DNA from: Candidatus Moraniibacteriota bacterium
GTDB taxonomy: Bacteria; Patescibacteriota; Minisyncoccia; Moranbacterales; GWC2-37-73
Direction of reading: 5' to 3'
Assembly: GCA_003507445.1 (NCBI GenBank)
Contig: DNVR01000019.1
Location: 206,132-270,131, forward strand
Length of the DNA stretch: 64,000 bases
Shown here: in pieces, positions 22,347-41,948 of the stretch
Numbering within the stretch: the first letter of the stretch is position 1
How the letters are laid out: each line of letters opens with the position of its first letter
Made by a program: the position numbers and the translations under genes
Notes under the pieces: model-generated
What the model was told of the DNA's origin: nothing
What the model saw: the letters and a program-made list of their open reading frames with translations, nothing else
Database searches by the model: none

Positions 22347-22390
22347 TTTGCAACACAAAATCCTTCGTTGTCACAGGCGGAGGATTTTAT

Positions 22391-22412
22391 GTTACGTAGC
22401 ATGCTACGTAAC
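22391..22412. repeat. tandem TACGTA palindrome element (gttacgtagc-at-gctacgtaac)
   Basis: two 10-bp self-palindromes GYTACGTARC separated by AT; 32 nt upstream of ABC ATPase gene. Confidence 0.7.
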
Positions 22413-22443
22413 ATAAAATTATTTTCTGAAAAAAAGGAATTTT

Positions 22444-23424
22444 ATGAAAAAACCAATAATTGAGGTAAAAAAATTGTGCAAGACATATGAATATGTAGAA
22501 AAAAATCCAGGGATCAAGCATTCTCTGCGAAATCTTTTTGCAAGAGAAAAAAAGCAAAAAGAAGCCGTGAAAGATGTTAGTTTCAAGATTGAAGAAGGGG
22601 AACTTGTGGGCTTTTTGGGTCCAAATGGAGCAGGTAAAACTACAACCTTAAAAATGTTGGCTGGAATTTTGACACCAACAAGTGGAGAAGTGGAAGTCTC
22701 GGGATATGAGCCGATTAAAAGACAAAAGGAATATCAAATGCAATTTGCTTTTGTGATGGGTCAAAAGATGCAACTTTGGTGGGATTTGCCACCAATGGAA
22801 AGTTTTTTGCTCAACAAAAAAATATATGAAGTTAATGATGAGGATTTTGAAAAAAATCTGTCTGAAATGATTGAGTTGCTTGATGTTGGCGGGATCGTGA
22901 ACAAACAGGTGCGTCAACTTTCTCTTGGTGAACGTATGAAATGTGAACTTATTGCTGCTCTTTTGCATAGTCCAAAAGTTCTCTTTTTGGATGAACCAAC
23001 AATTGGCTTGGATGTGGTGGCACAAAAAAAGATTCGTGATTTTATCAAAAAATATAATCAAGAAAGAAAGACCACGATCATTTTGACTTCGCATTATATG
23101 GAAGATATCGCCCAGCTTTGCAAACGCATTGTGATTATAGATATGGGAAAAATTATCTATGATGGGTCATTGGAAGATTTGATTTCAAAATATGTGCCCA
23201 ATAAAAAGATAACAATTTATTTTGAAAAAGAAGTTTCGAGAGAGGATGTGGAACAATTTGGCGCGTTGGTCGAATTTGATTTTCTTAAGCTCGTTTTTGA
23301 AATTCCACGTGAAAAGGTTAAGGATGTGGTTGGAAAAATTCTATCTTCAAATTTGGAAGTCAAAGATCTCGAAATTGATGAAGAGGATATCGAAAGTATT
23401 ATTAGAAATATTTTTACAAAATAA
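22444..23424 (+). CDS. ABC transporter ATP-binding protein (ABC-2 type)
   Basis: 326 aa; Walker A GPNGAGKTT, signature LSLGERMK, Walker B LFLDEPTIGLD. Confidence 0.85.
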   Translation: MKKPIIEVKKLCKTYEYVEKNPGIKHSLRNLFAREKKQKEAVKDVSFKIEEGELVGFLGPNGAGKTTTLKMLAGILTPTSGEVEVSGYEPIKRQKEYQMQFAFVMGQKMQLWWDLPPMESFLLNKKIYEVNDEDFEKNLSEMIELLDVGGIVNKQVRQLSLGERMKCELIAALLHSPKVLFLDEPTIGLDVVAQKKIRDFIKKYNQERKTTIILTSHYMEDIAQLCKRIVIIDMGKIIYDGSLEDLISKYVPNKKITIYFEKEVSREDVEQFGALVEFDFLKLVFEIPREKVKDVVGKILSSNLEVKDLEIDEEDIESIIRNIFTK

Positions 23425-23427
23425 CAA

Positions 23428-24219
23428 ATGGGGAAATATCTTGCGGTAGCAGCAAACAGTATAAAAAAGAATCTTGCATATCGGATGAATAATTTCATCA
23501 CGATGGTTTCAGTCTTCATTTCATTTATCGTTCTTTTTTATTTCTGGAACTCCATTTATAGGCAAGGAAATCAAATAGGAACATATTCTCTTGAAGAAAT
23601 GATTTCATATTATGTTTTTGTGACCATATTTCATTTATTGGTAATTGGTGATAACACTGCTTGGAGCGTTGGCGATGAAATAAACAATGGACAAATAACA
23701 TCCAGTGTATTAAGGCCTATAAATTATTTGAAATACAAGTTTTCCCAGCATATGGGAAATCTTGCTTATCGACTTATGATTTTTTTACCGATTATTCTGG
23801 TTGTTTTGTTTGTGCTCAGGAATTATATTACGCATGCGCAAAATTATACGACATATGCAATCTTTGCTCTCTGTGCAATGCTGAGTTATGGGTTGTATTT
23901 TTTGGTGTATTTCATTGTAGGGATAGTCGCTTTTTGGACAGCTGAAGCTAAAGGTTTTTTCTATACATGCTGGGTTGTAATCAACTTTATGCAGGGAGGA
24001 TTGATCCCATTGGATCTTTTGCCAAAATGGTTCTCATTAATTAGCGATTCTTTGCCGTTCAAATATCTGTTTTTTGTGCCAGTTAGTTTGGCATCGGGAA
24101 GAGTAAATTTCGATTATAAAATGATAGTAGTCCCAGTTTTGTGGTGCATTGGTATGTATTTTCTCGCTCAACTATTATATAAGAAAGGTTTAAAAAAATA
24201 CGAAGGATATGGTTTATAA
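23428..24219 (+). CDS. ABC-2 family transporter permease
   Basis: 263 aa; 6 predicted TM; adjacent to ABC ATPase. Confidence 0.55.
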   Translation: MGKYLAVAANSIKKNLAYRMNNFITMVSVFISFIVLFYFWNSIYRQGNQIGTYSLEEMISYYVFVTIFHLLVIGDNTAWSVGDEINNGQITSSVLRPINYLKYKFSQHMGNLAYRLMIFLPIILVVLFVLRNYITHAQNYTTYAIFALCAMLSYGLYFLVYFIVGIVAFWTAEAKGFFYTCWVVINFMQGGLIPLDLLPKWFSLISDSLPFKYLFFVPVSLASGRVNFDYKMIVVPVLWCIGMYFLAQLLYKKGLKKYEGYGL

Positions 24220-25012
24220 AAACTTTAAAAAATATTTTCTTATTTTTTTGCATTTGCAAAAAATAAATATTATGAGATGGGTGGCATATCCCGCATCATT
24301 CTTTATGAATTTCGTGGCAACCTTGTTAGTTATGATGCTTAGCATTTTATTTATAAAAGTTAATTTCGGTTATATTGATTCAATAGCAGGATGGTCATAT
24401 TATCAGGTTTTGGGCGTGGTCGGTAGCTATATGATTGTGGAGGGTATAATGTGGGTTTTATTTTCGATGCTTAATGCTATCAATGTTCATATTAAAGACG
24501 GAACACTGGATGGAATTTTGCTGAAACCAATCAATTCTCAATTCCTTGTTTCCTTTTGGAAAGGTGATCCTGAAGATAGTTTGCGCATTGTGACTGGAAT
24601 TATTTTGATAATTTTGGCTATGAGAAATACCATTGGTTTTGATTTGGGACATTTCATTTTATTTTTAATGCTCCTTATTAACGGAGTAATAGCTTTGTAT
24701 AGTTTTGATATATTCTTTCGTTCATTTTCCTTTTGGATTATTGATGGGTCTGGTCTGTGGCTTTTGATGGAAAGAATCACAATAAATTCTCAATATCCTG
24801 TTGATATTTACTATAATAAAATTGTGCGAGGAGTTTTTACTTTTATTGTCCCTCTGGCTTTTGTGGCAACAGTTCCTGCTAAGATTTTGACCAATATTGA
24901 TATTGATTGGCAATTCACTGCACTTTCATTTGTAGTGGCGTTTGTTTTTTTCTTTGGATCGCGCTGGTTCTGGGAGTTTTCCTTGAAACACTATTCAAGT
25001 GCAAGCAGCTGA
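24209..25012 (+). CDS. ABC-2 family transporter permease (second subunit)
   Basis: 267 aa; 6 predicted TM; alternative start at 24272 (MRWVAYP). Confidence 0.55.
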   Translation: MVYKNFKKYFLIFLHLQKINIMRWVAYPASFFMNFVATLLVMMLSILFIKVNFGYIDSIAGWSYYQVLGVVGSYMIVEGIMWVLFSMLNAINVHIKDGTLDGILLKPINSQFLVSFWKGDPEDSLRIVTGIILIILAMRNTIGFDLGHFILFLMLLINGVIALYSFDIFFRSFSFWIIDGSGLWLLMERITINSQYPVDIYYNKIVRGVFTFIVPLAFVATVPAKILTNIDIDWQFTALSFVVAFVFFFGSRWFWEFSLKHYSSASS

Positions 25013-25077
25013 CCCCCCGATTGCTTTTTTTGCTGATGATGGATATAATTTAGCGAATTGAATAATATATAAAAATT

Positions 25078-25956
25078 ATGGAAATTACACTTAGCCAGTA
25101 TGCTGGTTTTTGCGAGGGAGTGGAGCGGGCATATGATATTGTGGAAAAAATCGCCAAGGATCCGAAAGTAAAGAGGCCTATTTTTGTGCTGGGCTCGCTT
25201 GTTCATAATGAGGACGTGGTGGAAAAAATTGAAAAAATGGGAATTCAAAAAGTGCACGTTGAGGGTCCGCTTGAGGATTTTTTTGAAAAAATAAAAGACG
25301 AAGTTGGGACGCTCGTCATCACGTCTCACGGCATCGGACCAAGACTTTATGAGCTTGCCAAGGAATATGAAGTTCCACTGGTTGACGCCACTTGTCCGCG
25401 TGTAATTAAAGTGCAGAGATTGGCAAAAACATTTTTCGATCGGGATACTCAGATCGTTCTTATTGGCGAAAAAAATCATAAAGAAGTGAGGGGAATTTTT
25501 GAATGGGCGCAGAAAATTGCCGTGCTCATAGAAAGTGATGAGGATTTGTGCGGGCTTGTGCTTGACCCAAAAAAGAAAATCGCAGTTTTGTCGCAAACGA
25601 CACAAGATCAAGAATTTGTTGACAGAGCTGCCGCTCAAATTTCACGAAAATATCCAAAAGCAGAAGTCGTTGATTCTATTTGTTTGACCACACATCATCG
25701 CCAAACAGAAATAAAACAGTTGGCGCAAGAAAACGATGTTGTTATTGTTATCGGATCGCCAGAAAGTGCAAATTCAAAACGTCTTTGGGAAATCGCCAAG
25801 CGCGTCAATGAGTCATCATATTTTGTTCAGCGAGCTTCAGAGCTTGAAAGTAAATGGTTTGCTAATTGCAAAAAAGTGGCAGTAACCGCCGGAGCAAGCA
25901 CACCAGGGTGGATAATAGATGAGGTTATCGCAAAACTTGAAACATTGAGCACATAG
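25078..25956 (+). CDS. ispH: 4-hydroxy-3-methylbut-2-enyl diphosphate reductase
   Basis: 292 aa; GFCEGVERA N-terminal motif, conserved Cys at ~96 and ~193 (ATCPRV; DSICLTTHHRQ). Confidence 0.85.
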   Translation: MEITLSQYAGFCEGVERAYDIVEKIAKDPKVKRPIFVLGSLVHNEDVVEKIEKMGIQKVHVEGPLEDFFEKIKDEVGTLVITSHGIGPRLYELAKEYEVPLVDATCPRVIKVQRLAKTFFDRDTQIVLIGEKNHKEVRGIFEWAQKIAVLIESDEDLCGLVLDPKKKIAVLSQTTQDQEFVDRAAAQISRKYPKAEVVDSICLTTHHRQTEIKQLAQENDVVIVIGSPESANSKRLWEIAKRVNESSYFVQRASELESKWFANCKKVAVTAGASTPGWIIDEVIAKLETLST

Positions 25957-26114
25957 CATGGAACATAGGTACAAGTTGATTTTTTATGGAGAGTCTTTAT
26001 TTTTTTGTTTTATGTTTTATGTTTAGTGATCCATGATTGGGTTGCTTTTTACCCTTGAATTGGTTATACTTCAAATATTAAAAAATAGTAAAAATAACAA
26101 AAAAAGTTCAATTT

Positions 26115-26912: not shown

Positions 26913-26920
26913 AAAGAAAT

Positions 26921-27676: not shown

Positions 27677-27890
27677 CAGTAGAAGCAAAAGAAGATCAAA
27701 AATACTATATTTGTGAATATAAAGAATAATATTGAAGGTGCTGAGACGATTTCCCTCGCGGAATTGCCTTTTTTGGTATATTGAGCTACAATCTCTAGGT
27801 AGATTAGGGGTTATATTAATATATATAATGAATAAAATGTGGTTGGTATTGAAATGTTTTGTTTCAAAATCAAACGTTAAAAGCTGAATT

Positions 27891-29678: not shown

Positions 29679-29729
29679 TCAATATTTTTTAAAAAAGTAT
29701 AACGGCTTTTATATTTTAATTGATATTGT

Positions 29730-30071: not shown

Positions 30072-30102
30072 GCGCAAAATAATAATTCAAAAATAAAAAT
30101 AA

Positions 30103-30140
30103 CCCCAGTTAAATGATTACAAAAAGCTAATTTAACGGGG
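30103..30140 (+). promoter_or_regulatory. SD-sequestering 5'-leader hairpin (CCCCAGUUAAAU...AUUUAACGGGGUAAAA) upstream of MFS gene
   Basis: 12-nt inverted repeat; 3' arm GGGG lies 10 nt before ATG at 30150. Confidence 0.45.
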
Positions 30141-30149
30141 TAAAAATTA

Positions 30150-31367: not shown

Positions 31368-31374
31368 TCGGTTA

Positions 31375-32112
31375 TTGATTATTGAAATTATTATGTCTTA
31401 TCATTTTAAACTCGAACAATTTGAAGGGCCGCTGGATTTGCTTTTGCAACTGACTCAGCAGGAAAAGCTTGATATTACTCGAGTAAGTTTGGCGAAAATT
31501 GCAGATCAATATTTGGCATATATCGCTGAGGCCAAAGACATCACGCTTGCTCATCTGGCTGATTTTTTGTCAGTGGCATCTCGTCTTATTTTGATCAAAT
31601 CCAAAGCCTTGCTTCCGATGTTGGAATTTACTGAAGAGGAAGAGGAGGAAATTAAAGATTTGGAATATCAATTGGCAGAGTATAAAAAATTTAAAGATGC
31701 TTCGGCAAAGATTGCGCCCATTTTTGATTCGCCAAAAGCAAGTTTTGCGCGCGAAGGATTTTTGGGCTTGGCAACACTTTTTTATCCGCCAGAAAATATT
31801 GTTGCTTTTGATTTGCAAAAAGCTTTTGCCAAAGTGTTGGGCGAAATTCCGGTTCAAGAAAAATTGGAAGAAGAAATGGTAAAAGAAGTTCTAACTTTGG
31901 AAGACAGAATTGTCCATTTGCAAAACACCTTGAGAGACCGAGTGCAAACATCATTTTCCGAACTTGTTGCAAATGCAAAAGACAAAGTTGAAATTGTGGT
32001 TTCTTTTCTTGCAATGCTCGAATTGGTAAAACAACGAATCATCCACGTGGAGCAAGGAGAACTATTTTCCGAAATACATCTTAAACACAAAGATCATAAA
32101 AGTGCTACGTAA
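31375..32112 (+). CDS. scpA: segregation and condensation protein A
   Basis: 245 aa; FEGPLDLLLQL N-terminal motif, C-terminal winged helix; likely true start MSYHF (31393). Confidence 0.8.
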   Translation: MIIEIIMSYHFKLEQFEGPLDLLLQLTQQEKLDITRVSLAKIADQYLAYIAEAKDITLAHLADFLSVASRLILIKSKALLPMLEFTEEEEEEIKDLEYQLAEYKKFKDASAKIAPIFDSPKASFAREGFLGLATLFYPPENIVAFDLQKAFAKVLGEIPVQEKLEEEMVKEVLTLEDRIVHLQNTLRDRVQTSFSELVANAKDKVEIVVSFLAMLELVKQRIIHVEQGELFSEIHLKHKDHKSAT

Positions 32113-32130
32113 TTATAGTTCAAAAAAAGC

Positions 32131-32243
32131 TTTTGTTTTGCCTGCTTCCTTTCTCGGCACGCTTCGCAATCGAAGAACTATGATTGCTCGCTAAGAGTTC
32201 GCTGTCGCTCTCTGTTGCCTCGAAAGAAAACAGGCAAAACAAA
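32131..32243 (+). repeat. ~115-nt structured intergenic element E1 (MITE-like or sRNA; second copy at 46104-46222)
   Basis: imperfect 25-bp terminal inverted repeats TTTTGTTTTGCCTGCTTCCTTTCTCGG / CTCGAAAGAAAACAGGCAAAACAAA; internal hairpin gcaatc-GAAGAACUAU-gauugc covaries with the E2 copy. Confidence 0.5.
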
Positions 32244-32436
32244 TTGAACTTTTGAGACTTAGAGTCATAACTTGCATATGATTTGTCAAAAGTGAGTTGG
32301 GTAAAACCAGCTCGTTTTTTATATCCAAAAATCCTGTTTTCCCAGCAGGAAGAGGTTTCTGATTATTGTGTATTAATATTTATAAGATGAAAGAATGTCG
32401 CAAAAAAGTGGGAAAATATCATAATAATTAATATTC

Positions 32437-32477
32437 ACTCAAGTTAAATGGCGGGAGGTTTTGCAATTTAACTGGGT
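32437..32477 (+). promoter_or_regulatory. SD-region leader hairpin (variant of CCCAGUUAAAU/AUUUAACUGGG family) upstream of VOC gene
   Basis: CTCAAGTTAAAT...ATTTAACTGGGTAAAA then ATG 32486. Confidence 0.4.
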
Positions 32478-32485
32478 AAAATCAT

Positions 32486-32902
32486 ATGAAAAATCCAAGA
32501 CCCATACATTTTGAAATCAACGCAATTGATCCTGCGCGCACCGCCAAATTCTATGCGGATGTGTTCGGGTGGGAGTTTGAAAAGTGGGAGACGCCAGAAG
32601 CCAACATGGACTATTGGATGGTTATGACAGGCGACAAGGAAACCATGGGAATCAACGGTGGTATGAGCAAGCAAGACCAGCCTCCTGCCAAAGGAGGAGC
32701 CAATTCATTCATCCCAACAATGGGAGTTTCCAATTTTGACGAATATCACCAAAAGATTCTTTCAGCCGGTGGAACAGTGCAAATGGAAAAGCACGAGATT
32801 CCAACTGTCGGTTTGCATGGATATTACCATGACACCGAAGGCAACATCTTCGGCATCCTCGAACCATCAGAGGAGATGAAAAAAATGGAAGAAACGATGT
32901 AA
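32486..32902 (+). CDS. VOC/glyoxalase/bleomycin-resistance family protein
   Basis: 138 aa; paired beta-alpha-beta-beta-beta modules, HFEINAIDPART N-terminus. Confidence 0.7.
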   Translation: MKNPRPIHFEINAIDPARTAKFYADVFGWEFEKWETPEANMDYWMVMTGDKETMGINGGMSKQDQPPAKGGANSFIPTMGVSNFDEYHQKILSAGGTVQMEKHEIPTVGLHGYYHDTEGNIFGILEPSEEMKKMEETM

Positions 32903-33054
32903 TGATTTCAAAAAGAAATTTCCTGTCACCAGCGCAGGGAATTTTTTTAACTGAAAATTAGAAAAAAGCGTGAATTTGGGAAATTGAAGAATGATTTCGG
33001 GCTTAAAGTAGGTATTCTGCTCCATGCTCCATGTTTCATGTTTTATGATTTCGA

Positions 33055-33130
33055 GCTTGAATTATGGGTAAAATGAGAGTAGAATGGAAATATAAGTCAA
33101 CTGACGTTGTTACGTAGCATGTTACGTAAC
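33055..33130. repeat. 76-bp direct repeat, left flank of GNAT cassette
   Basis: about 95% identical to 33628-33703; ends in the TACGTA tandem palindrome. Confidence 0.75.
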
Positions 33131-33142
33131 AAAATTATATGT

Positions 33143-33601
33143 ATGGAAATCGTGATTAGAAAAACAAATGAATTCGAAAAAGCTTTGGGAATTGCGAAAA
33201 CATTGCCGGAGTTTTTCACGCAGCAAGGGCTGGATGAAATCAAGGTGCAGCTTCCTGATCAAGCAGTATATGGAGCATATGACGGCGAGGAATTGATCGC
33301 CTGCATTAGCTATAAGAAAGTCAATGACTCAACAATTGATATTGCTTTCCTTTTTATGCTGGAGACTTATCATGGAAAGGGCATTGGCACGCGACTTGTT
33401 GAAGAGAGTCTTGCTGTTGAAGGCGGGGAATTCAAGGTTTGCCAGGTTAATACTTTGGCAGAGACTGTTGAAGATGCAGGATATGCAAGAACAAGAAAAT
33501 TTTATGAAAAATTGGGTTTTATTCCAATTGAAATCATCCACCCCTATCCCGGTTGGGGCATGGAAAATCCGTGTCAGATTTATGTGAGATTTTTGAAATA
33601 A
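33143..33601 (+). CDS. GNAT-family N-acetyltransferase
   Basis: 152 aa from MEIVIRK; acetyl-CoA motif HGKGIGTRLVE; the ORF-track start 33107 lies inside the palindrome. Confidence 0.7.
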   Translation: MEIVIRKTNEFEKALGIAKTLPEFFTQQGLDEIKVQLPDQAVYGAYDGEELIACISYKKVNDSTIDIAFLFMLETYHGKGIGTRLVEESLAVEGGEFKVCQVNTLAETVEDAGYARTRKFYEKLGFIPIEIIHPYPGWGMENPCQIYVRFLK

Positions 33602-33627
33602 AGCAGGCCTTGAGTCTGTTTTATTGT

Positions 33628-33703
33628 GCTTGAATTATGGGTGGAATGAGAGTAGAATGGAAATATAAGTCAACTGATGTTGTTACGTAGCATGTTACGT
33701 AAC
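33628..33703. repeat. 76-bp direct repeat, right flank of GNAT cassette
   Basis: gcttgaattatgggtggaatgagagtagaatggaaatataagtcaactgatgttgttacgtagcatgttacgtaac. Confidence 0.75.
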
Positions 33704-33793
33704 AAGGTTTTATTTTTGAAAAATAAGTTATGCACAGTTGTGTTTGAATTTATTGAATGATATAATATCACTGTAAGAGTTTAAAATAAAAAT

Positions 33794-34765
33794 ATGACAC
33801 AAAAAATAATACAAGATATGGCCGTCAGTTTGAATATTCATCCAATTCATCTGCGGGTTTTTATGTCGAACTTTAAAAATGTATCAGCTGAAAATATCGT
33901 ATCGGCATACAAAGAATTCAAAGATGAAAATCCAAAACCGTTTGTAAAGTGGGTTGGAGGAAAAAGGCAATTGCTCAAACAATTTAGAGAGAGAGATTTG
34001 TATCCGCCCTATGATTTTGATCCGAAAACTGCAACTTACTTTGAGCCTTTTGTCGGTGGTGGAGCAATGTTTTTTGATTTGTTACCAAAAAAAGCTGTTT
34101 TGTCTGATATGAATGCCGAATTGGTAACAACTTATAATGTTATTAAAAATGACGTTGAAGGATTAATAAAAAAATTAAAAGAATATCAAAAGAAAAATAA
34201 TAAAGAATATTTTCTCAAAGTTCGTGCGCAAGATTTTAAAAAACTTTCCGATGTTGATGTTGCTGCTCGTTTTATATATCTAAATAGAACTTGTTTCAAT
34301 GGAATGTTTCGCGTTAATGGTAGTGGTCAATTTAATGTTCCATTTGGGGATAACAAGAATCCGCTTATTTGTGATGAAGAAAATTTGCGGAAAGCTCATG
34401 ATGCAATGAAGTATACTAAAATCTTGCATCAGGACTATGGAAAAGTTTTAGAAAAAGCAAAAAAAGGAGATTTTGTTTATTTTGATCCACCTTATTGTCC
34501 GGTTAACGCAACGTCTAGTTTTACGAGTTATACCAAGGAGGGATTTCTTGAAAAACAACAAATAGAATTGAAGGATGCCTTTATGGAGCTCCACAAGAGA
34601 GGTTGCTATGTTATGCTTTCAAATTCTGATACGCCATTTATCAATGAATTATATTCTGGACTAGGCAAAAAAATAAAAATTCACACTGTTGATGCTGGGC
34701 GTTCTATTAATTCAAAGGGAACAGGAAGAGGAAAAATTAAGGAGGTTGTCGTGATAAATTATTAA
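33794..34765 (+). CDS. dam: DNA adenine methyltransferase (Dam/D12 class N6-adenine MTase)
   Basis: 323 aa; KWVGGKRQLL, EPFVGGGA, YLNRTCFNGMFRVN, catalytic DPPY (VYFDPPYCP). Confidence 0.85.
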   Translation: MTQKIIQDMAVSLNIHPIHLRVFMSNFKNVSAENIVSAYKEFKDENPKPFVKWVGGKRQLLKQFRERDLYPPYDFDPKTATYFEPFVGGGAMFFDLLPKKAVLSDMNAELVTTYNVIKNDVEGLIKKLKEYQKKNNKEYFLKVRAQDFKKLSDVDVAARFIYLNRTCFNGMFRVNGSGQFNVPFGDNKNPLICDEENLRKAHDAMKYTKILHQDYGKVLEKAKKGDFVYFDPPYCPVNATSSFTSYTKEGFLEKQQIELKDAFMELHKRGCYVMLSNSDTPFINELYSGLGKKIKIHTVDAGRSINSKGTGRGKIKEVVVINY

Positions 34766-34774
34766 AAAATAATT

Positions 34775-36481
34775 ATGGCAAATTTTACAAAAACAGAGCC
34801 TTATACATTTGCAGCCCTTTGTGATTCTTTTAAAATGTTTAAGATACCAAATTTTCAGAGACCATATAAATGGACAAATAAAAATATCCAAGAATTTTGG
34901 AGCTCAATTATTTCAAATCAGAGTCCATATTTCATTGGGAATATAGTTGCAGTAAGTGACGAAAGTCTTCTTGTTATTGATGGGCAACAGAGATTAACAA
35001 CAATTAATTTGTTGTTAATAGCCCTAAGGGATACATATTCAAATATAAAAGTAAAAAAAAGCGATAAAACTAAAGTCAGTAGAACTATTGCAAGAATAGA
35101 TAAATATCTGAAGGATGATGATCTTTCGAAATCGGTAGAGTCTGAATATAAACGATTAGAACTTGGCAAAGATATGTATCAGAAAATTTTCAACATGTTG
35201 GTTGATAACGAAATCGATAACATTGATATAAAAAAGTTAACTGATAACCAAAAACGATTAATAAACAACTATGAAATATTAAAAAAATTTATACTATCAG
35301 AAATTAAGGGATCAGAGCTGAATAGTTTGGATGGTATTTTAAACAAAGTTTTAAATTTGCAGTTTATTGTTATTGTTTGTGCAACTGAAAATGATATATA
35401 TGGTATTTTCGAAGGATTTAATTCTACAGGATTGGGCTTGTCGGTAGCAGATCTTGTAAAAAATTCTATTTTAAAAGGAAGTGCGAGAGATACAAAAATG
35501 CAATCATTAATTGAGGAATTATGGAATGAAATGGAGTTAATGTTTGATGAAACAATTGCTTCAAAATTTCCTAAATTTCTTAGGCACCAATGGATTTCAG
35601 TTTATGGCCATGTTTCTATGTCCAACCTTTATAGGGAAATAAAGTCTGAGAAGATTGATAATAAGACACCGCAGATAATTAAGGAATATGTGGAATCAGT
35701 TTTATTTGATGCTAAGATATATCTTGGGATGCTATATTGGAAACACGAAAAAAACCTGGACTTGCCAAAAGATATATTGGAAGAAATATTTAAATTCAGA
35801 TTTTTGCAAAATGACCAGGTTTATGAGGTGTTGTTGACTTATCATCGGGCATTTAAAGAAAAAAGGATAACCCAATCTTTTTTTAAAAAATTTCTTAAAC
35901 GACTCTGGATTTTTACTGTTAGAGCTAGGTTCGTATCTGTAAATCCTTCTAAATATGAAAAAATCTTTTCAACACAATGTAAAGAAATTTACGAATGCAA
36001 AAATATTGAAGAAGTTTCTGCTGAAACTGAACGTTTTTTTTCAAAATTAAAAAAACTTGTTTCATCTGATGAGCAGTTTGTTGAGAATTTTATTGCAGAT
36101 GTTAAGTATGGGAAGGATAATAAATTAATATCTCTAGCAATTTCAGACTTAATGAGTTATGATAATCCAGAAATAAGCATAAAAGAGCCAGAAATAGAAC
36201 ACATTTTACCTCAAGAACCTAAAAAATGGGGATTTGCCAAGAGTGAAGTAAAAGATTATGTTGATAAAATTGGAAATTTAACTTTATTATTTAGTGATTT
36301 TAATAAAAAAAATAGCAATGAAACCATGTCATTTAAAAAAGCTATATTTAAAAAATCAAAACTTAAGTTCAACGTTGATATAGCAGATAAATGGGGCGAT
36401 ATTTTCGTTAAAGACTTCAAGAATGCTATTGAGCGGAGAAGTATTGATATGACAAAAAGAATTGAAAAAATTTGGAAATAA
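34775..36481 (+). CDS. GmrSD-like type IV restriction enzyme (DUF262 N-terminal / DUF1524 HNH-like C-terminal)
   Basis: 568 aa; DUF262 DGQQRLTT motif, C-terminal His-Me finger EIEHILPQ...IGNLTLL. Confidence 0.8.
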   Translation: MANFTKTEPYTFAALCDSFKMFKIPNFQRPYKWTNKNIQEFWSSIISNQSPYFIGNIVAVSDESLLVIDGQQRLTTINLLLIALRDTYSNIKVKKSDKTKVSRTIARIDKYLKDDDLSKSVESEYKRLELGKDMYQKIFNMLVDNEIDNIDIKKLTDNQKRLINNYEILKKFILSEIKGSELNSLDGILNKVLNLQFIVIVCATENDIYGIFEGFNSTGLGLSVADLVKNSILKGSARDTKMQSLIEELWNEMELMFDETIASKFPKFLRHQWISVYGHVSMSNLYREIKSEKIDNKTPQIIKEYVESVLFDAKIYLGMLYWKHEKNLDLPKDILEEIFKFRFLQNDQVYEVLLTYHRAFKEKRITQSFFKKFLKRLWIFTVRARFVSVNPSKYEKIFSTQCKEIYECKNIEEVSAETERFFSKLKKLVSSDEQFVENFIADVKYGKDNKLISLAISDLMSYDNPEISIKEPEIEHILPQEPKKWGFAKSEVKDYVDKIGNLTLLFSDFNKKNSNETMSFKKAIFKKSKLKFNVDIADKWGDIFVKDFKNAIERRSIDMTKRIEKIWK

Positions 36482-37107
36482 ATTTTAAAAATATGAATAA
36501 TTACAATTTAAGATTACTTGATAACTCGGAGGTTATTAAATGGTGCTATGAGGGTGTTACGGATATTTCTTTGAAGAATACTGAAAGTGAAAAAAAATTA
36601 AAAGAATCAAAGGAGATAGAAAAAGAATGGGGCAATAGCGTTATGAATACCACAGATGGAAAGCAGTGGACAACTTTGCTTTGTCAAAATTTAGTCATGG
36701 AGGCACTTGTTAGGCTTGGTAGAAAAAATGTCAGACAAACTACTGCAAAAAAAAGTACTCTTAGGGATAAAAAATACGATCCAGATTTAGAATGTGACGA
36801 ATTTGTTTATGAGGTGAAGGGCAGAAGTTGGTCTACCCCTGGAACTGCTGGTGAAAAAATACTTGGAGTGCCCTTGAAATATGGTGAATTGCCACGTTTA
36901 TACAAAAAACCACTTCAAATAGTTTTGGTAGGATATCAGGAATATGAAGCTCGAGAAAAATTCGCTTTCGGTGATTTATTAGACAAAAATAATCAAACAA
37001 CTGAATTACGAGACAGCCTAGCTTTTTACAAGGAGCACAATATTGAATATGTTGCCTTTACAGATATTTTGAAAAAAATAGGTTTTGATTATGGCTGTTG
37101 GAATTAA
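36472..37107 (+). CDS. putative type II restriction endonuclease (PD-(D/E)xK)
   Basis: 211 aa; YDPDLECDEFVYEVKGR fits PD...ExK; immediately upstream of MTase; alternative start 36493. Confidence 0.45.
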   Translation: MEINFKNMNNYNLRLLDNSEVIKWCYEGVTDISLKNTESEKKLKESKEIEKEWGNSVMNTTDGKQWTTLLCQNLVMEALVRLGRKNVRQTTAKKSTLRDKKYDPDLECDEFVYEVKGRSWSTPGTAGEKILGVPLKYGELPRLYKKPLQIVLVGYQEYEAREKFAFGDLLDKNNQTTELRDSLAFYKEHNIEYVAFTDILKKIGFDYGCWN

Positions 37108-37122
37108 AGATGATTTAAAAAA

Positions 37123-37869
37123 ATGAAAACAAAAATAAAATTGCATCCAGATGAATTTGAAATGGAATGTACCACTGTGTGGTCATTCCCTAGGCGTGGA
37201 AACTGGGCAACACATAAATCAGATTGGCGAGGAAATTGGGCACCAGAAGTGGTGCGTAATTTAATCCTGCGTTACTCAAAGGAAAGCGATCACATTCTTG
37301 ATTGTATGATTGGCGGTGGAACAACCGCAATAGAGGCAAAAATATTAAATCGTCACATCACTTGTATTGATGTTAATGAAGAGGCACTAGAACGTACGAA
37401 AAAATCATTAGAATTTGAGGTTGAAAACAATTCCAAACAAAGAATAATGAAGTGCGACGCTCGCAATATGGCATTCATTAAAAATGAGGAAATAGATTTT
37501 GTTCTTACTCATCCACCGTATGTTGATATTATAAAGTATAGCGAAGGAAAAATTAAAGAAGATTTATCTGGCATTCATAGTCTGGATGAATTTTGTGATG
37601 AAATTGAAAAAGTTGCCAGTGAATTATTTCGCGTTTTGAAAAAAGGAAAATATTGTGCAATTTTGATGGGGGATACTAGAAGAGAAAAAATGTATCAACC
37701 GTTGGCCTTTAAGGTTATGGAACGATTTTTAAAACAAGGTTTTGTATTAAAAGAGGATATTATTAAAAAACAACATAACTGCAAAGCCACCGGCTTTTGG
37801 GTAAAACGTTCCCAAGAAAGTAATTTTCTCTTGATTATGCATGAGCATCTTTTTGTATTTCAGAAATGA
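37123..37869 (+). CDS. DNA methyltransferase (N4-C/N6-A, gamma-like motif order)
   Basis: 248 aa; motif I DCMIGGGTTAIEA precedes motif IV LTHPPY. Confidence 0.75.
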   Translation: MKTKIKLHPDEFEMECTTVWSFPRRGNWATHKSDWRGNWAPEVVRNLILRYSKESDHILDCMIGGGTTAIEAKILNRHITCIDVNEEALERTKKSLEFEVENNSKQRIMKCDARNMAFIKNEEIDFVLTHPPYVDIIKYSEGKIKEDLSGIHSLDEFCDEIEKVASELFRVLKKGKYCAILMGDTRREKMYQPLAFKVMERFLKQGFVLKEDIIKKQHNCKATGFWVKRSQESNFLLIMHEHLFVFQK

Positions 37870-37879
37870 TTTTTTTATT

Positions 37880-38305
37880 ATGAAAACAAAGAAAGAAAAA
37901 AAGTTATCAGAAGAGTTTGTGAAAAACTCTGTTATTAAATATCTCTCCTCTAACGGCTGGGGTCATTTTAAATTTGGTGGATTAAGAGAGCATGGTGTTG
38001 ATATAAAAGCAAAAAAACAAAATTATGATCGGTATTTTCTTATTGAGGCAAAAGGCGAAGGAAGTCGTAGGGAAATGAATGAAAATTATTTTGTTTATTC
38101 ATTAGGGCAAATAATAACTCGTATGACTTCTGGCGGAACAACAAGAAATTATTATGGACTTGCACTTCCGGATTCAATAGCAAAAATTGCGCTTAGGCGC
38201 ATTCCATGGCAAGTAGCAAAAAAGTTGCTGCTGTATGTTTTTTCTGTTGATTCAAAAGGACAAGTGAAACAAAATTCTTGGCAGGATATAAAAAACAAAA
38301 AATAA
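37880..38305 (+). CDS. PD-(D/E)xK nuclease-like hypothetical protein
   Basis: 141 aa from MKTKKEKK; HGVDIKAK...YFLIEAKGEG fits D...ExK core. Confidence 0.4.
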   Translation: MKTKKEKKLSEEFVKNSVIKYLSSNGWGHFKFGGLREHGVDIKAKKQNYDRYFLIEAKGEGSRREMNENYFVYSLGQIITRMTSGGTTRNYYGLALPDSIAKIALRRIPWQVAKKLLLYVFSVDSKGQVKQNSWQDIKNKK

Positions 38306-38308
38306 TTT

Positions 38309-38330
38309 GCTACGTAACATGCTACGTAAC
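38309..38330. repeat. tandem TACGTA palindrome element (gctacgtaac-at-gctacgtaac)
   Basis: same family; 60 nt upstream of AbrB-like gene. Confidence 0.7.
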
Positions 38331-38357
38331 AAAATAAAAAATAAAAATTAATCTAGA

Positions 38358-38378
38358 TTCCGGATTTGCTGTCCGGAA
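38358..38378. promoter_or_regulatory. candidate operator: perfect inverted repeat TTCCGGA-N7-TCCGGAA
   Basis: 13 nt upstream of the AbrB/MazE-like ORF start; typical autoregulatory operator geometry. Confidence 0.4.
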
Positions 38379-38390
38379 TGATAAAGAAGT

Positions 38391-38555
38391 ATGAAAAAGA
38401 AAGAAGAACTTGTTCGCAAAGTGACTGGAGTTGGGAAGCGAAGCCTCTCAATCGTCATCCCATCCGAAATCGTCGCCGAACTCGGGATTAAAGAACGCCA
38501 AAAAATGACCTTCAAAATCGACCGCAAGAAAATAATTATAAGTGATTGGAAATAA
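38391..38555 (+). CDS. AbrB/MazE/SpoVT-family small DNA-binding protein (antitoxin-like)
   Basis: 54 aa, not in ORF track; KRSLSIVIPSEIVAELGIKERQKMTF matches swapped-hairpin AbrB/MazE domain. Confidence 0.55.
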   Translation: MKKKEELVRKVTGVGKRSLSIVIPSEIVAELGIKERQKMTFKIDRKKIIISDWK

Positions 38556-38567
38556 TTCTATTTATAT

Positions 38568-39995
38568 ATGCGTGAAAAACACATAACACAGGAATCATCA
38601 AAATTGCAAAATTCTAATTTATCTGGGATAAAATTTGAAAACGATCAAACTTATTCCAAGAGCATTTCGCAAGAGTTGGCTGAAATGAGGATACAACAAG
38701 AAAAAAAAGATATTGACGAAATAGATAAAATTATGGGATTTTTTCGTGTACCTGAAAGAAATAATGAAGTACATGTTTTTGATGCTGGCGAAAAATTTGA
38801 TCCATATTCTGAAATTGATAAAATTAGGGTTGGAAGTAAAAAAGAAAAAAGACATAATCTGGAAATATATAAGAAGAAATTAATATTTCAGCGTAAGGGG
38901 ATTACTGAAATGCAAACTCATTTGTACGAGTTAATGCAAAAGAAAGAGACAATGACGGTTGAAATGCTTAAGCAATCCATTGCCGACCTTGAAGATAAAT
39001 ATGCATTATGCGATGAGCAAAGACGTATTTTTGATTCTGCAATAAAAATATATGCCGAAAGACATAATGGTATAGTTGAAAATACTCGAGATTGCATTGA
39101 TGAAGAAGGGAACATTGATGGAAAAAAATTATATGAGAAAATTTTTGGTAGACAACCTTATGGGGATGTTAATGTTGAAATATTGCCAATTACTATATAT
39201 CTAAGAACTTTTGATTTTGAAGATTATGCGTATGTTCATTCAAATGCATATAAAAACAAAAGAGAAATTGATGATGATGAATTTAAAAATGCTAGTATGT
39301 CAGGAGGAGTAAAATTGTGGAACTCTGGATTTTCTGGTCTGGAAAGCGTTGTAACACTTCAAAACGCTAATAATGTCGTTAAAAGAATGTTTAAGAGTAT
39401 TTCTGATGAAACACGTGATCATGAAGATCAGCATAATTTTAATGATCTTATCGATGAAGCGTTTATAAATAACGGTAGCGCATCATCTCCTATTGGCGAA
39501 AACGAGGAAATATTACGGGATGTGGATGAAAAAGAAAAAAAGAAACAAGACGCTGAAAGTCGTGACATAGGCATTGAAATGATGATAGGGGATGAGATGT
39601 GCGCATTTTTTAAAACCGGTAATTCAGCTCAATATATTCATGACGCAATATTAAAAAAAGATACTATATATGAATATGGGAAGAATTATAGAAAAGAAAA
39701 AAGGAAACATGGAGAGCAATTTTCTCAAAATTACAAAGACCTTGTTGATGGAGGAATTGTTGCTATGTTTGATTTACTCGATCATGGTTATTCGCGAAAA
39801 GAGGTTATAGCCTTGCTATTTTTTGATCTTCCTTCACAGTGGGGAAAAGTTGTTTCTAGAGTTTTGGAAAGAAGAAAAACAACAACAGAAGAAAAACAAG
39901 ATAGAAAAAAAATTGTGAATATTATTGATAGAATCAGTAGACATATTACTGGGAAGTTTAGTGATATCTATGATTTTTTTAGGGTAAGATTATAA
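38568..39995 (+). CDS. hypothetical 475-aa protein, candidate effector paired with AbrB/MazE-like gene
   Basis: starts 13 nt after the AbrB-like stop; charged, Lys/Glu-rich; no recognisable catalytic motif. Confidence 0.5.
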   Translation: MREKHITQESSKLQNSNLSGIKFENDQTYSKSISQELAEMRIQQEKKDIDEIDKIMGFFRVPERNNEVHVFDAGEKFDPYSEIDKIRVGSKKEKRHNLEIYKKKLIFQRKGITEMQTHLYELMQKKETMTVEMLKQSIADLEDKYALCDEQRRIFDSAIKIYAERHNGIVENTRDCIDEEGNIDGKKLYEKIFGRQPYGDVNVEILPITIYLRTFDFEDYAYVHSNAYKNKREIDDDEFKNASMSGGVKLWNSGFSGLESVVTLQNANNVVKRMFKSISDETRDHEDQHNFNDLIDEAFINNGSASSPIGENEEILRDVDEKEKKKQDAESRDIGIEMMIGDEMCAFFKTGNSAQYIHDAILKKDTIYEYGKNYRKEKRKHGEQFSQNYKDLVDGGIVAMFDLLDHGYSRKEVIALLFFDLPSQWGKVVSRVLERRKTTTEEKQDRKKIVNIIDRISRHITGKFSDIYDFFRVRL

Positions 39996-40030
39996 AATAA
40001 TATGGGTATTGAAAAAATAATGATTTCAGA

Positions 40031-40453
40031 TTGGAAATAAAAAATATGAGAATTGTGGTTAGGGCTATAATTAAAAATGACGATTCACTGTTGGTAATTA
40101 AGAGAATTAAAAATGGGAAAACATATTTTGTTTTTCCTGGCGGCGGGGTTGATGATGGAGAAAGTCATCCCATTGCACTAAAAAGAGAATGCAAAGAAGA
40201 ATTGGGCCTAGATGTTTCAGTATTGGAATTTATGTATGATTTTGATTTTATCAAAAAGGATAATGAGCCACAGAAAGAATATTTTTATCAATGCGATATA
40301 TTAGGAGGAAAACTCGGAAGTGGTGAAGGAGAAGAATATAGCCCAGACCGCAATAGTGGAATTTATGAGCCAATGTGGATAAAGTTAGAGGAACTTTCAG
40401 ATTTGGATTTGAGACCAATCGAAATAAAAAATAAATTAATAGCTGAATTATAA
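40031..40453 (+). CDS. NUDIX hydrolase
   Basis: Nudix box GGGVDDGESHPIALKRECKEELGL; likely true start ATG 40046 (MRIVV). Confidence 0.75.
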   Translation: MEIKNMRIVVRAIIKNDDSLLVIKRIKNGKTYFVFPGGGVDDGESHPIALKRECKEELGLDVSVLEFMYDFDFIKKDNEPQKEYFYQCDILGGKLGSGEGEEYSPDRNSGIYEPMWIKLEELSDLDLRPIEIKNKLIAEL

Positions 40454-40456
40454 TTA

Positions 40457-40478
40457 GCTACGTAACATGTTACGTAGC
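40457..40478. repeat. tandem TACGTA palindrome element (gctacgtaac-at-gttacgtagc)
   Basis: same family. Confidence 0.7.
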
Positions 40479-40533
40479 ACTCCAGAGAAATAGAAGAGAT
40501 TTTACGGGGTAAAAAATAACCAATCAAACATAG

Positions 40534-40564
40534 CATTCACTCAACGTCGGCCGTGGAAGAGTGA
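40534..40564. repeat. GC-rich 31-bp repeat CATTCACTCAACGTCGGCCGTGGAAGAGTGA (copy 2)
   Basis: upstream flank of PaaX-like gene. Confidence 0.6.
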
Positions 40565-40622
40565 TGTAAGGTGGGATATTATTAAGATGGAGATCTTTAT
40601 TTTTTTATAGTATAATCGTGGT

Positions 40623-41210
40623 ATGTATAGGCCAGGAGTTGTTCAAAAGAAAATATTGTTGGCGCTTTTAGGTGGGGTTGCTTTGGGTGTGTCTTCATCG
40701 CCTCGACAATATTTTAGTACTTTGCGAAAATTGAAAAAAGAATGGGTAAAAATAAATCCACAGAATTTTAATCGCTCCATCAAGAGTCTTTCGAAGGAAA
40801 AACTTATAAGCGAGATCGAGCTTCCTGATGGTTCTTTTAAATTGACCTTAACTGAAAAAGGCAAGAAGCAGGCTCGCGTGCTGAATATCTTCGGAAAGTC
40901 GATAGATTTCAAGAAGCCGAAGAAATGGGATGGCAAGTGGCGAGTTGTTATGTTTGATATCCCTGAAAAAGATAGACTTTTTCGCGACGTGCTCAGAAAT
41001 CACTTGAAGGATTTGAAATTTAGGAAATTGCAGCACAGCGTTTTTGTTTCACCTTATCCTTTCGAGAAACCTATCTTGGAATTGGTCGCTCTGTATTCGG
41101 CGGAAAAATTTGTCAGAGTCATAACTGCACAGAAATTGGATAATGGTAAATATCTCGAAAAAATGTTTTTCAAAAAAAACAAACACTCACTCAACGTCGG
41201 CCGTGGATGA
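40623..41210 (+). CDS. PaaX-like winged-helix regulator domain protein
   Basis: 195 aa; N-terminal wHTH-like region; C-terminal WDGKWRVVMFDIPEKDRLFRDVLRNHLKDLKFRKLQHSVFV resembles the PaaX C-terminal (also Cas2-like) fold motif; last 9 codons run into repeat copy 3. Confidence 0.4.
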   Translation: MYRPGVVQKKILLALLGGVALGVSSSPRQYFSTLRKLKKEWVKINPQNFNRSIKSLSKEKLISEIELPDGSFKLTLTEKGKKQARVLNIFGKSIDFKKPKKWDGKWRVVMFDIPEKDRLFRDVLRNHLKDLKFRKLQHSVFVSPYPFEKPILELVALYSAEKFVRVITAQKLDNGKYLEKMFFKKNKHSLNVGRG

Positions 41211-41215
41211 GTGAG
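41184..41215. repeat. GC-rich 31-bp repeat CACTCACTCAACGTCGGCCGTGGATGAGTGAG (copy 3)
   Basis: downstream flank of PaaX-like gene. Confidence 0.6.
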
Positions 41216-41240
41216 TTAATAACAAATAAATAATTTCAGA

Positions 41241-41918
41241 TTGGAAATAAAAAATATGGAAAAAAGTAAGATAAAAGCAATAATATTTGATATGGATGGT
41301 GTGTTGGTTAATTCTGAACCAATACATGAAAGAGCGGAAATGGAGATTTGTCTTGAGTTTGGTATGAAGGTTTCAAAACGTGAATGGGATGGTTTTCGGG
41401 GCAAGAAGCTTGAAGACATCTTTTCATACGCCAGCAAAAAATATGGAACTGGAAATGAGCCTATTGAGGAGATGATTGAGCGTAAGATTGCTCGGTATTT
41501 GTCATTGGCACTTGCTGAAATGGATCTCGTCCCCGGTGCATATGATTTTCTGCAGAAGCTAAAAAAGAATGGAAAATATAGCTACGCGCTGACGACCTCA
41601 GGCAGGAAGGTACAGCAGGAAAAAATTCTTTCAAAATTCAAACTTGCTGATTATTTTGAAATCATGATTACTTCGGATGATGTGAAGAATGGCAAGCCTC
41701 ATCCAGAGCCATATGCAATCACAGTGCAAAAACTGAATGAGCTGCCCGAGGCATGCTTGGTTATCGAAGATTCTGATAATGGAATTTTGTCTGCCAAGGC
41801 TGCAGGATGTTTTGCTTGCGGGATCACGACGACATTTGGTCGCGAGAAATTGGAAGGTGCAGGCGCAGACATGGTAGTTTCTGATTTTTTTGAATTATCA
41901 AAAATATTATTCGATTAG
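41241..41918 (+). CDS. HAD-superfamily hydrolase (beta-phosphoglucomutase-like, subfamily IA)
   Basis: motif I IIFDMDGVL, motif III K, motif IV EDSDNG; likely true start ATG 41256. Confidence 0.8.
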   Translation: MEIKNMEKSKIKAIIFDMDGVLVNSEPIHERAEMEICLEFGMKVSKREWDGFRGKKLEDIFSYASKKYGTGNEPIEEMIERKIARYLSLALAEMDLVPGAYDFLQKLKKNGKYSYALTTSGRKVQQEKILSKFKLADYFEIMITSDDVKNGKPHPEPYAITVQKLNELPEACLVIEDSDNGILSAKAAGCFACGITTTFGREKLEGAGADMVVSDFFELSKILFD

Positions 41919-41926
41919 TATTACAT

Positions 41927-41948
41927 GCTACGTAACATGCTACGTAGC
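41927..41948. repeat. tandem TACGTA palindrome element (gctacgtaac-at-gctacgtagc)
   Basis: same family; last copy before scpB. Confidence 0.7.

Follow-up and report, generated by a model that had tools for sequence, protein, structure and literature searches.

AbrB of Bacillus and its relatives Abh and SpoVT (PF04014; structures 1z0r, 1yfb and 2k1n) are built around a swapped-hairpin domain of about 50 amino acids, and AbrB is autoregulated from its own promoter; to our knowledge, AbrB has no strict consensus site. The MazE, PemI and AbrB-type VapB antitoxins belong to the same Pfam family. Here we describe a palindromic DNA motif that recurs in a 64,000-nt stretch of a Candidatus Moraniibacteriota genome (assembly GCA_003507445.1, contig DNVR01000019.1, positions 206,132 to 270,131 of the forward strand; this whole stretch is called the window in the following), together with a small AbrB-like gene in the same stretch. 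The host belongs to the candidate phyla radiation (CPR, or Patescibacteria). We consider it likely that the motif is the double-stranded DNA operator of this small AbrB-N-domain-type protein, which is conserved across the CPR and is encoded here at 38391-38555.

The locus resembles the Bacillus proteins in several respects. Its product is a domain of about 50 residues with a full-length profile match and a predicted beta-beta-alpha-beta-beta order, and, as for AbrB, there are several chromosomal sites, some of them intragenic, including one at the regulator's own promoter. Unlike AbrB, the 54-aa protein consists of the N-domain only, without the C-terminal tetramerisation domain, and it carries a KRSL loop insertion; the inferred site is a crisp 24-bp palindrome conserved across the CPR, and the host is a CPR bacterium rather than a sporulating member of the Firmicutes. 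With MazE, PemI and VapB it shares the family, the small size and a palindrome just ahead of its own gene; however, no toxin gene stands behind the AbrB-like gene, and the same site occurs at many unlinked loci and inside genes. The controller (C) proteins of restriction-modification (R-M) systems are likewise small regulators with a palindromic operator, the C-box, upstream of their own gene and among R-M genes, and the neighbours invite this comparison: a Dam methyltransferase (MTase), GmrSD and a type II restriction endonuclease (REase) and MTase here, HsdR-like and MTase genes elsewhere. But C proteins are helix-turn-helix proteins (Xre-type), not of the AbrB fold, and C-boxes are system-specific, whereas this motif is conserved across CPR lineages and is also found away from R-M genes.

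Two more distant likenesses concern chromosomal landmarks and gene cassettes. Like parS of ParB, the NBS sites of Noc and matS of MatP, the palindrome is conserved over a very wide phylogeny, is low in copy number, has one copy beside the gene of its presumed binder and is tolerated in genes; its half-site TGTTAC|GTAACA also resembles that of parS (TGTTTCAC|GTGAAACA). In contrast to parS/ParB, the protein has another predicted fold, no ParA-type ATPase is linked, and the sites are concentrated in accessory DNA missing from close relatives, where a core segregation site would not be expected. A centromere of the parS/ParB type was considered and rejected: the presumed partner belongs to the AbrB family, the window sites lie in DNA that four relatives lack, and canonical parS is not found in the window beyond chance. 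Significant linkage of the motif to smc, scpA or scpB was not seen beyond the window and three other loci (L044, L081 and L107). In L081, a Patescibacteria metagenome-assembled genome (MAG), the AbrB-like gene and the motif (about 2985-3191) lie directly upstream of smc; in the window they lie between scpA and scpB. No SMC, ScpA or ScpB cluster was present among the neighbours of 97 AbrB-like loci, and the SMC linkage in L081 and in the window is probably a coincidence. As in integron cassette arrays, imperfect palindromes stand directly behind promoterless-looking, co-oriented open reading frames (ORFs), and the cassettes vary between relatives. However, the motif measures 24-36 nt, whereas attC sites span roughly 55-140 nt; its sequence rather than its structure is conserved, and no integron integrase or attI is present.

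In the window, the pattern GYTACGTARC-NN-GYTACGTARC with up to two mismatches matches at exactly seven positions (2352, 22391, 33109, 33682, 38309, 40457 and 41927), the same seven that a preliminary description of this DNA had listed, and it has no match in 100 dinucleotide-preserving shuffles of the window. Exact GYTACGTARC 10-mers number 13 against 0 expected; TACGTA is found 19 times where 3.5 would be expected, 13 of them within the motif. The earlier account, which saw two perfect 10-bp palindromes in each unit, is wrong for most copies: only three of the 13 ten-mers (33121, 33694 and 41939) are perfect palindromes, and the remaining ten read GTTACGTAGC or GCTACGTAAC, each the other's reverse complement and neither self-complementary. 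The symmetric object in the window is the whole 22-26-mer centred on AT, which is a perfect palindrome only at 22391 and 40457. The true unit is a palindrome of 24-26 bp, (T)TGYTACGTARCA|TGYTACGTARCA(A), in which two 12-nt units, sometimes three, are joined. The copy at 2352 is degenerate, with an AA spacer and CGCAAC in its second unit. Two further traces had been missed before: a degenerate double unit with four mismatches ahead of scpB, and a single unit that provides the stop codon of scpA. All seven copies are indeed intergenic and upstream of plus-strand genes, as first described, but this is half the picture, since the copies at 38309, 40457 and 41927 each lie 4-9 nt past the stop codon of the gene before. 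Five of the seven lie, as had been said, in the island between scpA (31375-32112) and scpB (42095-42643).

The motif is spread widely among CPR bacteria. A scan of 185,579 species genomes with TACGTARCATGYTACGTA returned at least 118 blocks of 8 kb, which form our motif-selected set; counts from this set refer to the matches listed. These blocks are overwhelmingly from Patescibacteria/CPR, including Saccharibacteria, Moranbacteria, Paceibacterota, Falkowbacteria, Kaiserbacteria, Doudnabacteria, Buchananbacteria and others. Over 121 sites the consensus is (T)TGTTACGTAGCA|TGCTACGTAACA(A), and the flanks beyond the search pattern are conserved as well, with T at position 0 in 112 sites and A at position 23 in 114. 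Two units are present in 93 arrays, three units in 15 (about 13%; a 36-nt palindrome) and a single unit in 10, the lone units being mostly decayed doubles. Matches outside the CPR (Bradyrhizobium, Flavobacteriaceae and others) lack the TGT/ACA flanks and therefore look like chance palindromes. No exact match was found in 2.9 million viral contigs, which argues against a phage origin and in favour of an operator. A second site falls within the same 8-kb block in only 3 of 118 cases, and in 80 loci selected by the protein (see below) strict sites away from the regulator's promoter occur about once per 65 kb. Taken with the share of listed blocks that carry the AbrB-like gene (12-17 of 118), this background suggests, as an indirect estimate, roughly 5-20 copies per 1-Mb genome. 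LexA or another known global operator was also considered and rejected, as the genes flanking the motif show no conserved regulon. A full-text search, whose coverage does not extend to subscription literature, found no publication on the motif sequence or on AbrB regulons in Patescibacteria, CPR or Saccharibacteria.

The evidence that carries the operator reading comes from a test set of 80 metagenome loci that were fetched solely with an alignment of the AbrB-like protein. In 69 of these 80, the motif (three mismatches or fewer, most with none) precedes the start codon by 0-116 nt (median about 14 nt), and several of the remaining 11 loci show decayed copies. Elsewhere in the same loci (324 kb) there are five strict sites, so that only about 0.25 upstream matches would be expected in 80 loci. 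In the converse direction, tblastn finds the AbrB-like gene right behind the motif in about 17 of the 118 motif-selected blocks, among them blocks from Saccharibacteria, Doudnabacteria, Paceibacterota, Moraniibacteriota and one Auribacterota MAG. The site next to the regulator's own gene is consistent across homologues in both sets. Because 69 of the 80 protein-selected loci have the motif just upstream, we read it as the operator of the AbrB-like protein. Rare operator variants with TGCGTA, TACATA or TCCGTA cores go with no corresponding change in the protein and are uninformative on specificity.

The protein itself fits this assignment. It matches Pfam PF04014 with E=3.6e-6 and 27.3 bits (curated cutoff 24.7); the same family is precomputed on 31 of 34 close homologues, and relatives are labelled as MazE or PrlF antitoxins in JGI annotations. 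A profile built from 14 family members matches the AbrB N-domain structures 1z0r, 2k1n (DNA-bound) and 1yfb over residues 1-52 (E=9e-5 to 1.7e-4), relative to which the first loop carries the four-residue KRSL insertion, and an AlphaFold2 monomer model gives the beta-beta-alpha-beta-beta order (predicted local distance difference test score, pLDDT, 74; predicted template modelling score, pTM, 0.42). Two stretches, RKVTRVGKRS and RERQK, hardly vary across the family; they are the presumed DNA contacts, and we count their constancy for DNA binding, as it matches that of the operator. An exhaustive search (E <=1e-3) yields 52 representatives at 50% identity, a compact set of 44-90-aa proteins plus a few repeats inside longer proteins. 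The ORFs downstream of the AbrB-like gene are unrelated to one another (a 475-aa protein, NUDIX, SMC and membrane proteins), and no recurrent toxin cluster was found among 304 neighbour proteins; thus, the protein appears to be a stand-alone regulator and not part of a toxin-antitoxin pair. In other lineages the gene repeatedly neighbours NUDIX, HsdR-like, MTase, RhuM-like and PaaX-like genes, and its usual habitat therefore seems to be the flexible, defence-rich part of the genome.

In the window, the motif is confined to inserted DNA wherever relatives allow a comparison. Homologues of ScpB assign the window to Candidatus Moranbacteria. Four Moranbacteria loci (L200, L201, L202 and L203) are syntenic with the window, with ScpB 74-84% identical and 82 kb compared. 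In all four, scpA and scpB are 20-27 nt apart; a class II aminoacyl-tRNA synthetase gene adjoins lytB in L200, L202 and L203, and L201 has other genes upstream of lytB. As these relatives do not have the DNA in between, we recognise two insertions in the window (22350-25075 and 32113-42094), and six of the six motif copies in the comparable part of the window fall in one or the other, an ABC-transporter module and a 10-kb R-M/defence island. The 82 kb of the four relatives hold no motif copy, even with four mismatches. A closer relative, L044 (GW2011_GWC1_36_108), is 80-92% identical and keeps the string motif, AbrB, NUDIX, motif, PaaX, scpB. It differs from the window in three ways: other DNA lies to the left of copy 38309, the homology beginning at 38306, at the left edge of the copy; the 475-aa gene is missing; and a 369-aa gene replaces the HAD gene, copy 41927 and the 73 nt after it, the homology resuming at 42022, at the degenerate copy. 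The earlier statement that the motif marks module boundaries is thus borne out by the comparison of orthologous loci that had been suggested along with it: DNA and motif are missing together in the four syntenic relatives, and homology with L044 breaks at motif edges. The features of the window are collected in Table 1.

Table 1. Motif copies, the AbrB-like gene and the inserted modules in the window
Feature	Position	Strand	Context
Degenerate motif copy GTTACGTAGCAAGTTACGCAAC	2352..2373		Between ABC transporter gene (496-2265) and short-chain dehydrogenase gene (2559-3293)
31-nt repeat CACTCACTCAACGTCGGCCGTGGAAGAGTGA			Begins 30 nt after motif copy 2352..2373
Three-gene ABC-transporter module	22350..25075	+	Not in L200, L202, L203
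Motif copy, perfect 22-mer palindrome	22391..22412		Within 36-nt perfect palindrome (ATTTTATGTTACGTAGCATGCTACGTAACATAAAAT)
Single motif unit GCTACGTAAT	32103..32112		Last codons and stop of scpA; left island junction; scpA ends otherwise in relatives
10-kb accessory/defence island	32113..42094	+	Between scpA and scpB
Motif copy	33109..33130		About 16 nt past predicted transcription start, 9-13 nt ahead of GNAT start codon
Motif copy	33682..33703		Second 95-nt repeat; 91 nt ahead of Dam MTase-GmrSD-REase-MTase string
Motif copy	38309..38330		4 nt past preceding stop, 61 nt ahead of AbrB-like gene; presumed autoregulatory operator
54-aa AbrB/MazE-fold protein MKKKEELVRKVTGVGKRSLSIVIPSEIVAELGIKERQKMTFKIDRKKIIISDWK	38391..38555	+	Presumed motif binder; unannotated-looking ORF
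Motif copy, perfect 22-mer palindrome	40457..40478		4 nt past NUDIX stop, 145 nt ahead of PaaX-like gene; kept in L044
Motif copy	41927..41948		9 nt past HAD stop
Degenerate double unit ATTACGTAGCTAATTACATAAT	42024..42045		50 nt ahead of scpB; right island junction; kept in L044

The island reads, in order, glyoxalase-like, GNAT, Dam-family MTase, GmrSD/HEC-06 type IV nuclease and type II REase and MTase, followed by AbrB-like, 475-aa protein, NUDIX, PaaX/Cas2-like and HAD, and every transcription unit inside it opens with a motif copy. The copies at 33109 and 33682 belong to a duplicated 95-nt repeat of promoter plus motif (33055-33149 and 33628-33722, 91% identical) with a predicted promoter, TTGAAT-17-TAGAAT, upstream of each. 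A motif about 16 nt past the predicted start in this duplicated promoter is in a classic position for a repressor or roadblock. The copy at 22391 lies 45 nt past the stop codon of the aminoacyl-tRNA synthetase and 32 nt ahead of the start of the ABC ATPase, at the 5' side of the inserted module. The 475-aa protein (38568-39995) has no family match; its gene is directly behind the AbrB-like gene here and in L073 (Moraniibacteriota), it is the one missing in L044, and it may be a defence-island gene.

Such a distribution also raises the possibility that the motif is, or is in addition, a site-specific recombination or cassette-junction site at which modules are gained and lost by exchange. The 12-2-12 layout (TTGTTACGTAGC-AT-GCTACGTAACAA) is like that of the serine-recombinase crossover sites hix and gix, all six comparable copies lie in DNA missing from syntenic relatives (four relatives at scpA|scpB, three relatives at aminoacyl-tRNA synthetase|lytB), and motif remnants mark both island junctions (32103-12 and 42024-45). 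The homology with L044, which begins exactly where copy 38309 begins and picks up again at 42022, with the HAD-plus-motif unit swapped for another gene, points the same way, as do the copies 4-9 nt past stop codons, which recall attC in integron cassettes. Nevertheless, we hold this to be distinctly unlikely. No recombinase, integrase or transposase is among the window ORFs scanned, and none forms a recurrent neighbour cluster (at least four members) around 97 AbrB-like loci; the ABC module has the motif at one end only; other breakpoints between the window and L044 lie at a different repeat; and the conserved in-frame copies in housekeeping genes described below do not fit. Moreover, the empty sites in relatives carry no motif, which means that it was not a pre-existing target. 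The preliminary description had left open an operator for a dimeric or tetrameric protein and a recombination site; the operator stands as the best reading, and a dedicated recombination site, with no recombinase nearby, is much the less probable of the two. A self-spreading or uptake-driven repeat, either similar to repetitive extragenic palindromes (REPs) and miniature inverted-repeat transposable elements or a DNA uptake sequence (DUS) fixed through biased transformation, is very unlikely. CPR bacteria are taken to be naturally competent, the motif is enriched in recently acquired DNA, and its coding-sequence copies use the single tolerable frame, as DUS and uptake signal sequences (USS) do. 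However, USS and DUS reach about one per kb, far from the density given above; the sequence is conserved across CPR lineages and not species-specific as in REPs; single units are rare (the 10 noted above); the window ORFs scanned include no transposase to go with it; and the near-obligatory place ahead of one gene family fits neither a repeat nor an uptake signal.

Less probable still is that the motif works as a hairpin in RNA or DNA, as an intrinsic terminator, a 3'-end stabiliser, an RNase processing site or an element of the 5' untranslated region. The 22-26-mer could fold into a stem of 10-12 bp, a terminator scan flags 22383-22420, 33107-32, 33680-705 and 38306-33, and many sites lie near gene 3' ends and in convergent gaps. 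But the consensus runs from a T-rich 5' flank to an A-rich 3' flank, the opposite polarity to a terminator with its trailing U-run, and the sequence itself, not just the pairing, is conserved across CPR lineages. The inner pair (positions 9/14) is G-C in 43 of the listed matches, G-T in 21, A-C in 17 and A-T in 12, so the two positions vary independently (chi-square p=0.57); on the sense strand of 50 non-redundant gene-upstream sites, A·C mismatches outnumber G·U wobbles by 15 to 5, and the window copies at 38309 and 41927 themselves have A·C mismatches on the coding strand. At gene 3' ends the same orientation test gives 8 G·U against 4 A·C, with too few asymmetric sites. Gap-free copies also sit inside the coding sequence of MurE and MiaA, where termination would be harmful, and an Rfam scan of the window at gathering thresholds finds only tRNA-Lys, so the motif is not a known RNA family. 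The simple terminator, which had been disfavoured from the start, can be set aside on its flank polarity, its inner pair without covariation and its copies inside real genes. The least probable reading in our view is that TACGTA is the target of the island's R-M system, or that the motif belongs to the PaaX-like protein instead of the AbrB-like one. The island does encode a type II REase/MTase pair and a Dam-family MTase, and TACGTA had been suggested as the local specificity; yet outside the motif it is not avoided in the window (5 observed against 2.7 expected), and many genomes that lack these R-M genes have the motif. Of the 4-bp palindromes, GGCC is depleted most in the window (43 observed against 83 expected, 0.52), and CATG is also low (0.69); it is plausible that these two are targets of resident restriction systems, perhaps of the type II pair at 36472-37869. 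As for PaaX, which had been named with AbrB as a candidate binder, a PaaX-like gene stands behind copy 40457 and behind a motif copy in L044, L001 and L117. It was found, however, in only five of about 200 fetched loci (L199, L119, L044, L001 and L117), always with an AbrB-like gene, and at least two of the five are re-sampled, as L199 is the window's own arrangement and L119 and L044 are apparently the same contig. A separate 31-nt repeat lies beside the PaaX-like gene, and the AbrB-like protein, with its 69 of 80 loci, is strongly implicated.

Several observations weigh against an operator of the AbrB-like protein and have to be set beside the evidence for it. The pairing of motif and protein is positional only. 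The best Foldseek matches of the protein model are AbrB and MazE, but with E 0.36 or worse, which is non-significant, and the window protein carries G13 where the family has R. The outer pair of the palindrome (positions 2/21) covaries (p=9e-8), although a lineage effect or a symmetry constraint could explain this. Furthermore, about a quarter of the sites listed in other CPR genomes are inside genuine genes, and the sites away from the regulator gene favour 3' ends and convergent gaps (14/47 against a baseline of 103/632, p=0.026); in the median they lie 60 nt from a 3' end and 167 nt from a 5' end. Copies in genes and a bias to 3' ends are not what a simple promoter operator predicts; they could point to a function that does not depend on position, for example as a roadblock, an insulator or a chromosomal landmark, or to a part in module exchange.

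The copies in genes follow a strict pattern. Among the matches listed, the host genes are MiaA (three times), a MurE-type ligase (three or four), PrmC (three), PNP and GT4, and 19 of 20 in-gene sites use one frame, encoding (L/M)LR(S/N)MLR(N/S)K. In-frame copies occupy homologous positions in MiaA (L043 2601, L049 2795, L018 88), in the MurE-type ligase (L048 4863, L109 4114, L110 3476) and in PrmC (L103 1841, L113 5182, L084 1930). The MurE peptide KLLRNMLRNK aligns without gaps with the conserved helix KLMAKMVHNG of solved MurE, and MiaA also aligns without insertion. Because these alignments show no insertion, the motif appears to have been written into coding sequence by substitution, and a word written in this way would in turn imply selection, or drive, on double-stranded DNA.

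Considering all this, we return to the operator reading and propose how it could work. The candidate operator of the 54-aa protein, written out, is TGTTACGTAGCATGCTACGTAACA; TTGTTACGTAGCATGCTACGTAACAA. Each 12-bp unit TGYTACGTARCA is a near-palindrome that, to judge from AbrB and MazE, probably takes up one swapped-hairpin dimer; two such dimers side by side would fill each site, and three would fill the 36-nt arrays. The site ahead of the regulator's own gene would provide autoregulation, and the acquired modules with a copy on their 5' side, namely GNAT, the R-M/GmrSD string, the PaaX-HAD pair and the ABC transporter, would come under the same repressor. Accessory and defence genes may in this way share one repressor or roadblock, the AbrB-like protein, and some of the sites lie just past a promoter. 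The pairing with the gene, the positions and the conservation are observed directly; physical binding, its stoichiometry and the sign of regulation, that is, repression, are what we infer from the arrangement.

The window holds other repeats. The 31-nt repeat CACTCACTCAACGTCGGCCGTGGAAGAGTGA occurs at 2403-2432, 40535-40564 and 41185-41214 in the window and at 3888-3915, 4538-4565 and 5080-5107 in L044. It has a 6-bp stem (TCACTC/GAGTGA) and a loop containing CGGCCG. Two motif copies have it 30-60 nt further on; it precedes the short-chain dehydrogenase, PaaX-like and HAD genes, with an overlap into the 3' end of the PaaX-like gene. Outside the window, exact copies are present only in L044 among the 118 loci first fetched, and it is therefore a separate, lineage-specific element, which could serve as an RNA element or as a site of the PaaX-like protein itself. 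In L037, L181 and L183 a related palindrome, CCACGGCCGTGG, separates the motif from the AbrB-like gene. A common 40-nt leader (…AATAATTTCAGATTGGAAATAAAAAATATG) at 40007-40048 and 41217-41258 in the window, and at about 5075-5040 and 3885-3848 in L044, precedes the NUDIX gene, the HAD gene and, in L044, the unrelated 369-aa gene, placing different cassette ORFs behind one 5' leader. A long-hairpin repeat of about 115 nt (GCCTGYTTCC…GGCACGC…GAAAACAGGC) is found at 32131-32245, the left end of the scpA-scpB island, at 46105-46238, at about 60290-60400 and in L202 at 7851-7985; its Rfam matches are only chance ones, miRNA-like.

Elsewhere in the window, intergenic tandem repeats of 7-8 nt (for example ACATAAA or AGTTATAA) are followed by an imperfect complementary tandem repeat, giving long periodic hairpins in gaps, some of them between ribosomal-protein genes (43687-43782, 44884-44999, 50547-50643, 53630-53742, 54223-54314, 56011-56116, 56483-56600, 56989-57080, 62605-62654 and 63213-63373). 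Many of their mismatches are A·C on the plus strand and would be G·U on the minus strand. A 93-nt repeat is present four times (8057-8149, 9457-9549, 10716-10808 and 11894-11986; 62-83% identical) at a spacing of about 1.2-1.4 kb, each copy behind a gene with no or weak Pfam match, which looks like a cassette-like array with a common 3' element. An exact 47-nt duplication (61066-61112 and 61267-61313, 201 nt apart) starts in the 3' end of tRNA-Lys (61001-61074) and resembles the trace left by an element that inserted itself at this tRNA.

CPR bacteria are mostly uncultured, and gene regulation in them is almost unknown; the 54-aa protein and its 24-bp site provide a testable pair. What is familiar here is a small autoregulated protein of the AbrB/MazE fold with a palindromic operator. 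What is new is a protein reduced to the N-domain, with a sharp 24-bp site that is conserved in the CPR, concentrated in inserted modules and occasionally in frame in essential genes. The pair may help to locate regulatory sites in thousands of MAGs and to recognise accessory and defence modules of recent acquisition; it may also yield a repressible promoter for those few Saccharibacteria that are open to genetics, and serve to study how DNA-level signals enter essential coding sequences. We also put forward a broader and more speculative view, which we think rather unlikely as it stands: the AbrB-like protein and the 24-bp palindrome may form a regulatory standard shared by the CPR, with exchanged modules carrying a ready-made operator, and the site may also have been recruited as a chromosomal landmark. 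If so, exchanged modules, R-M and defence cassettes above all, could be silenced or timed on arrival in any CPR recipient that has the regulator, and recruitment as a landmark would explain the in-frame motif in the helices of MurE, MiaA and PrmC and the remnants at the island junctions. This would amount to a control of mobile defence genes shared across the whole superphylum.

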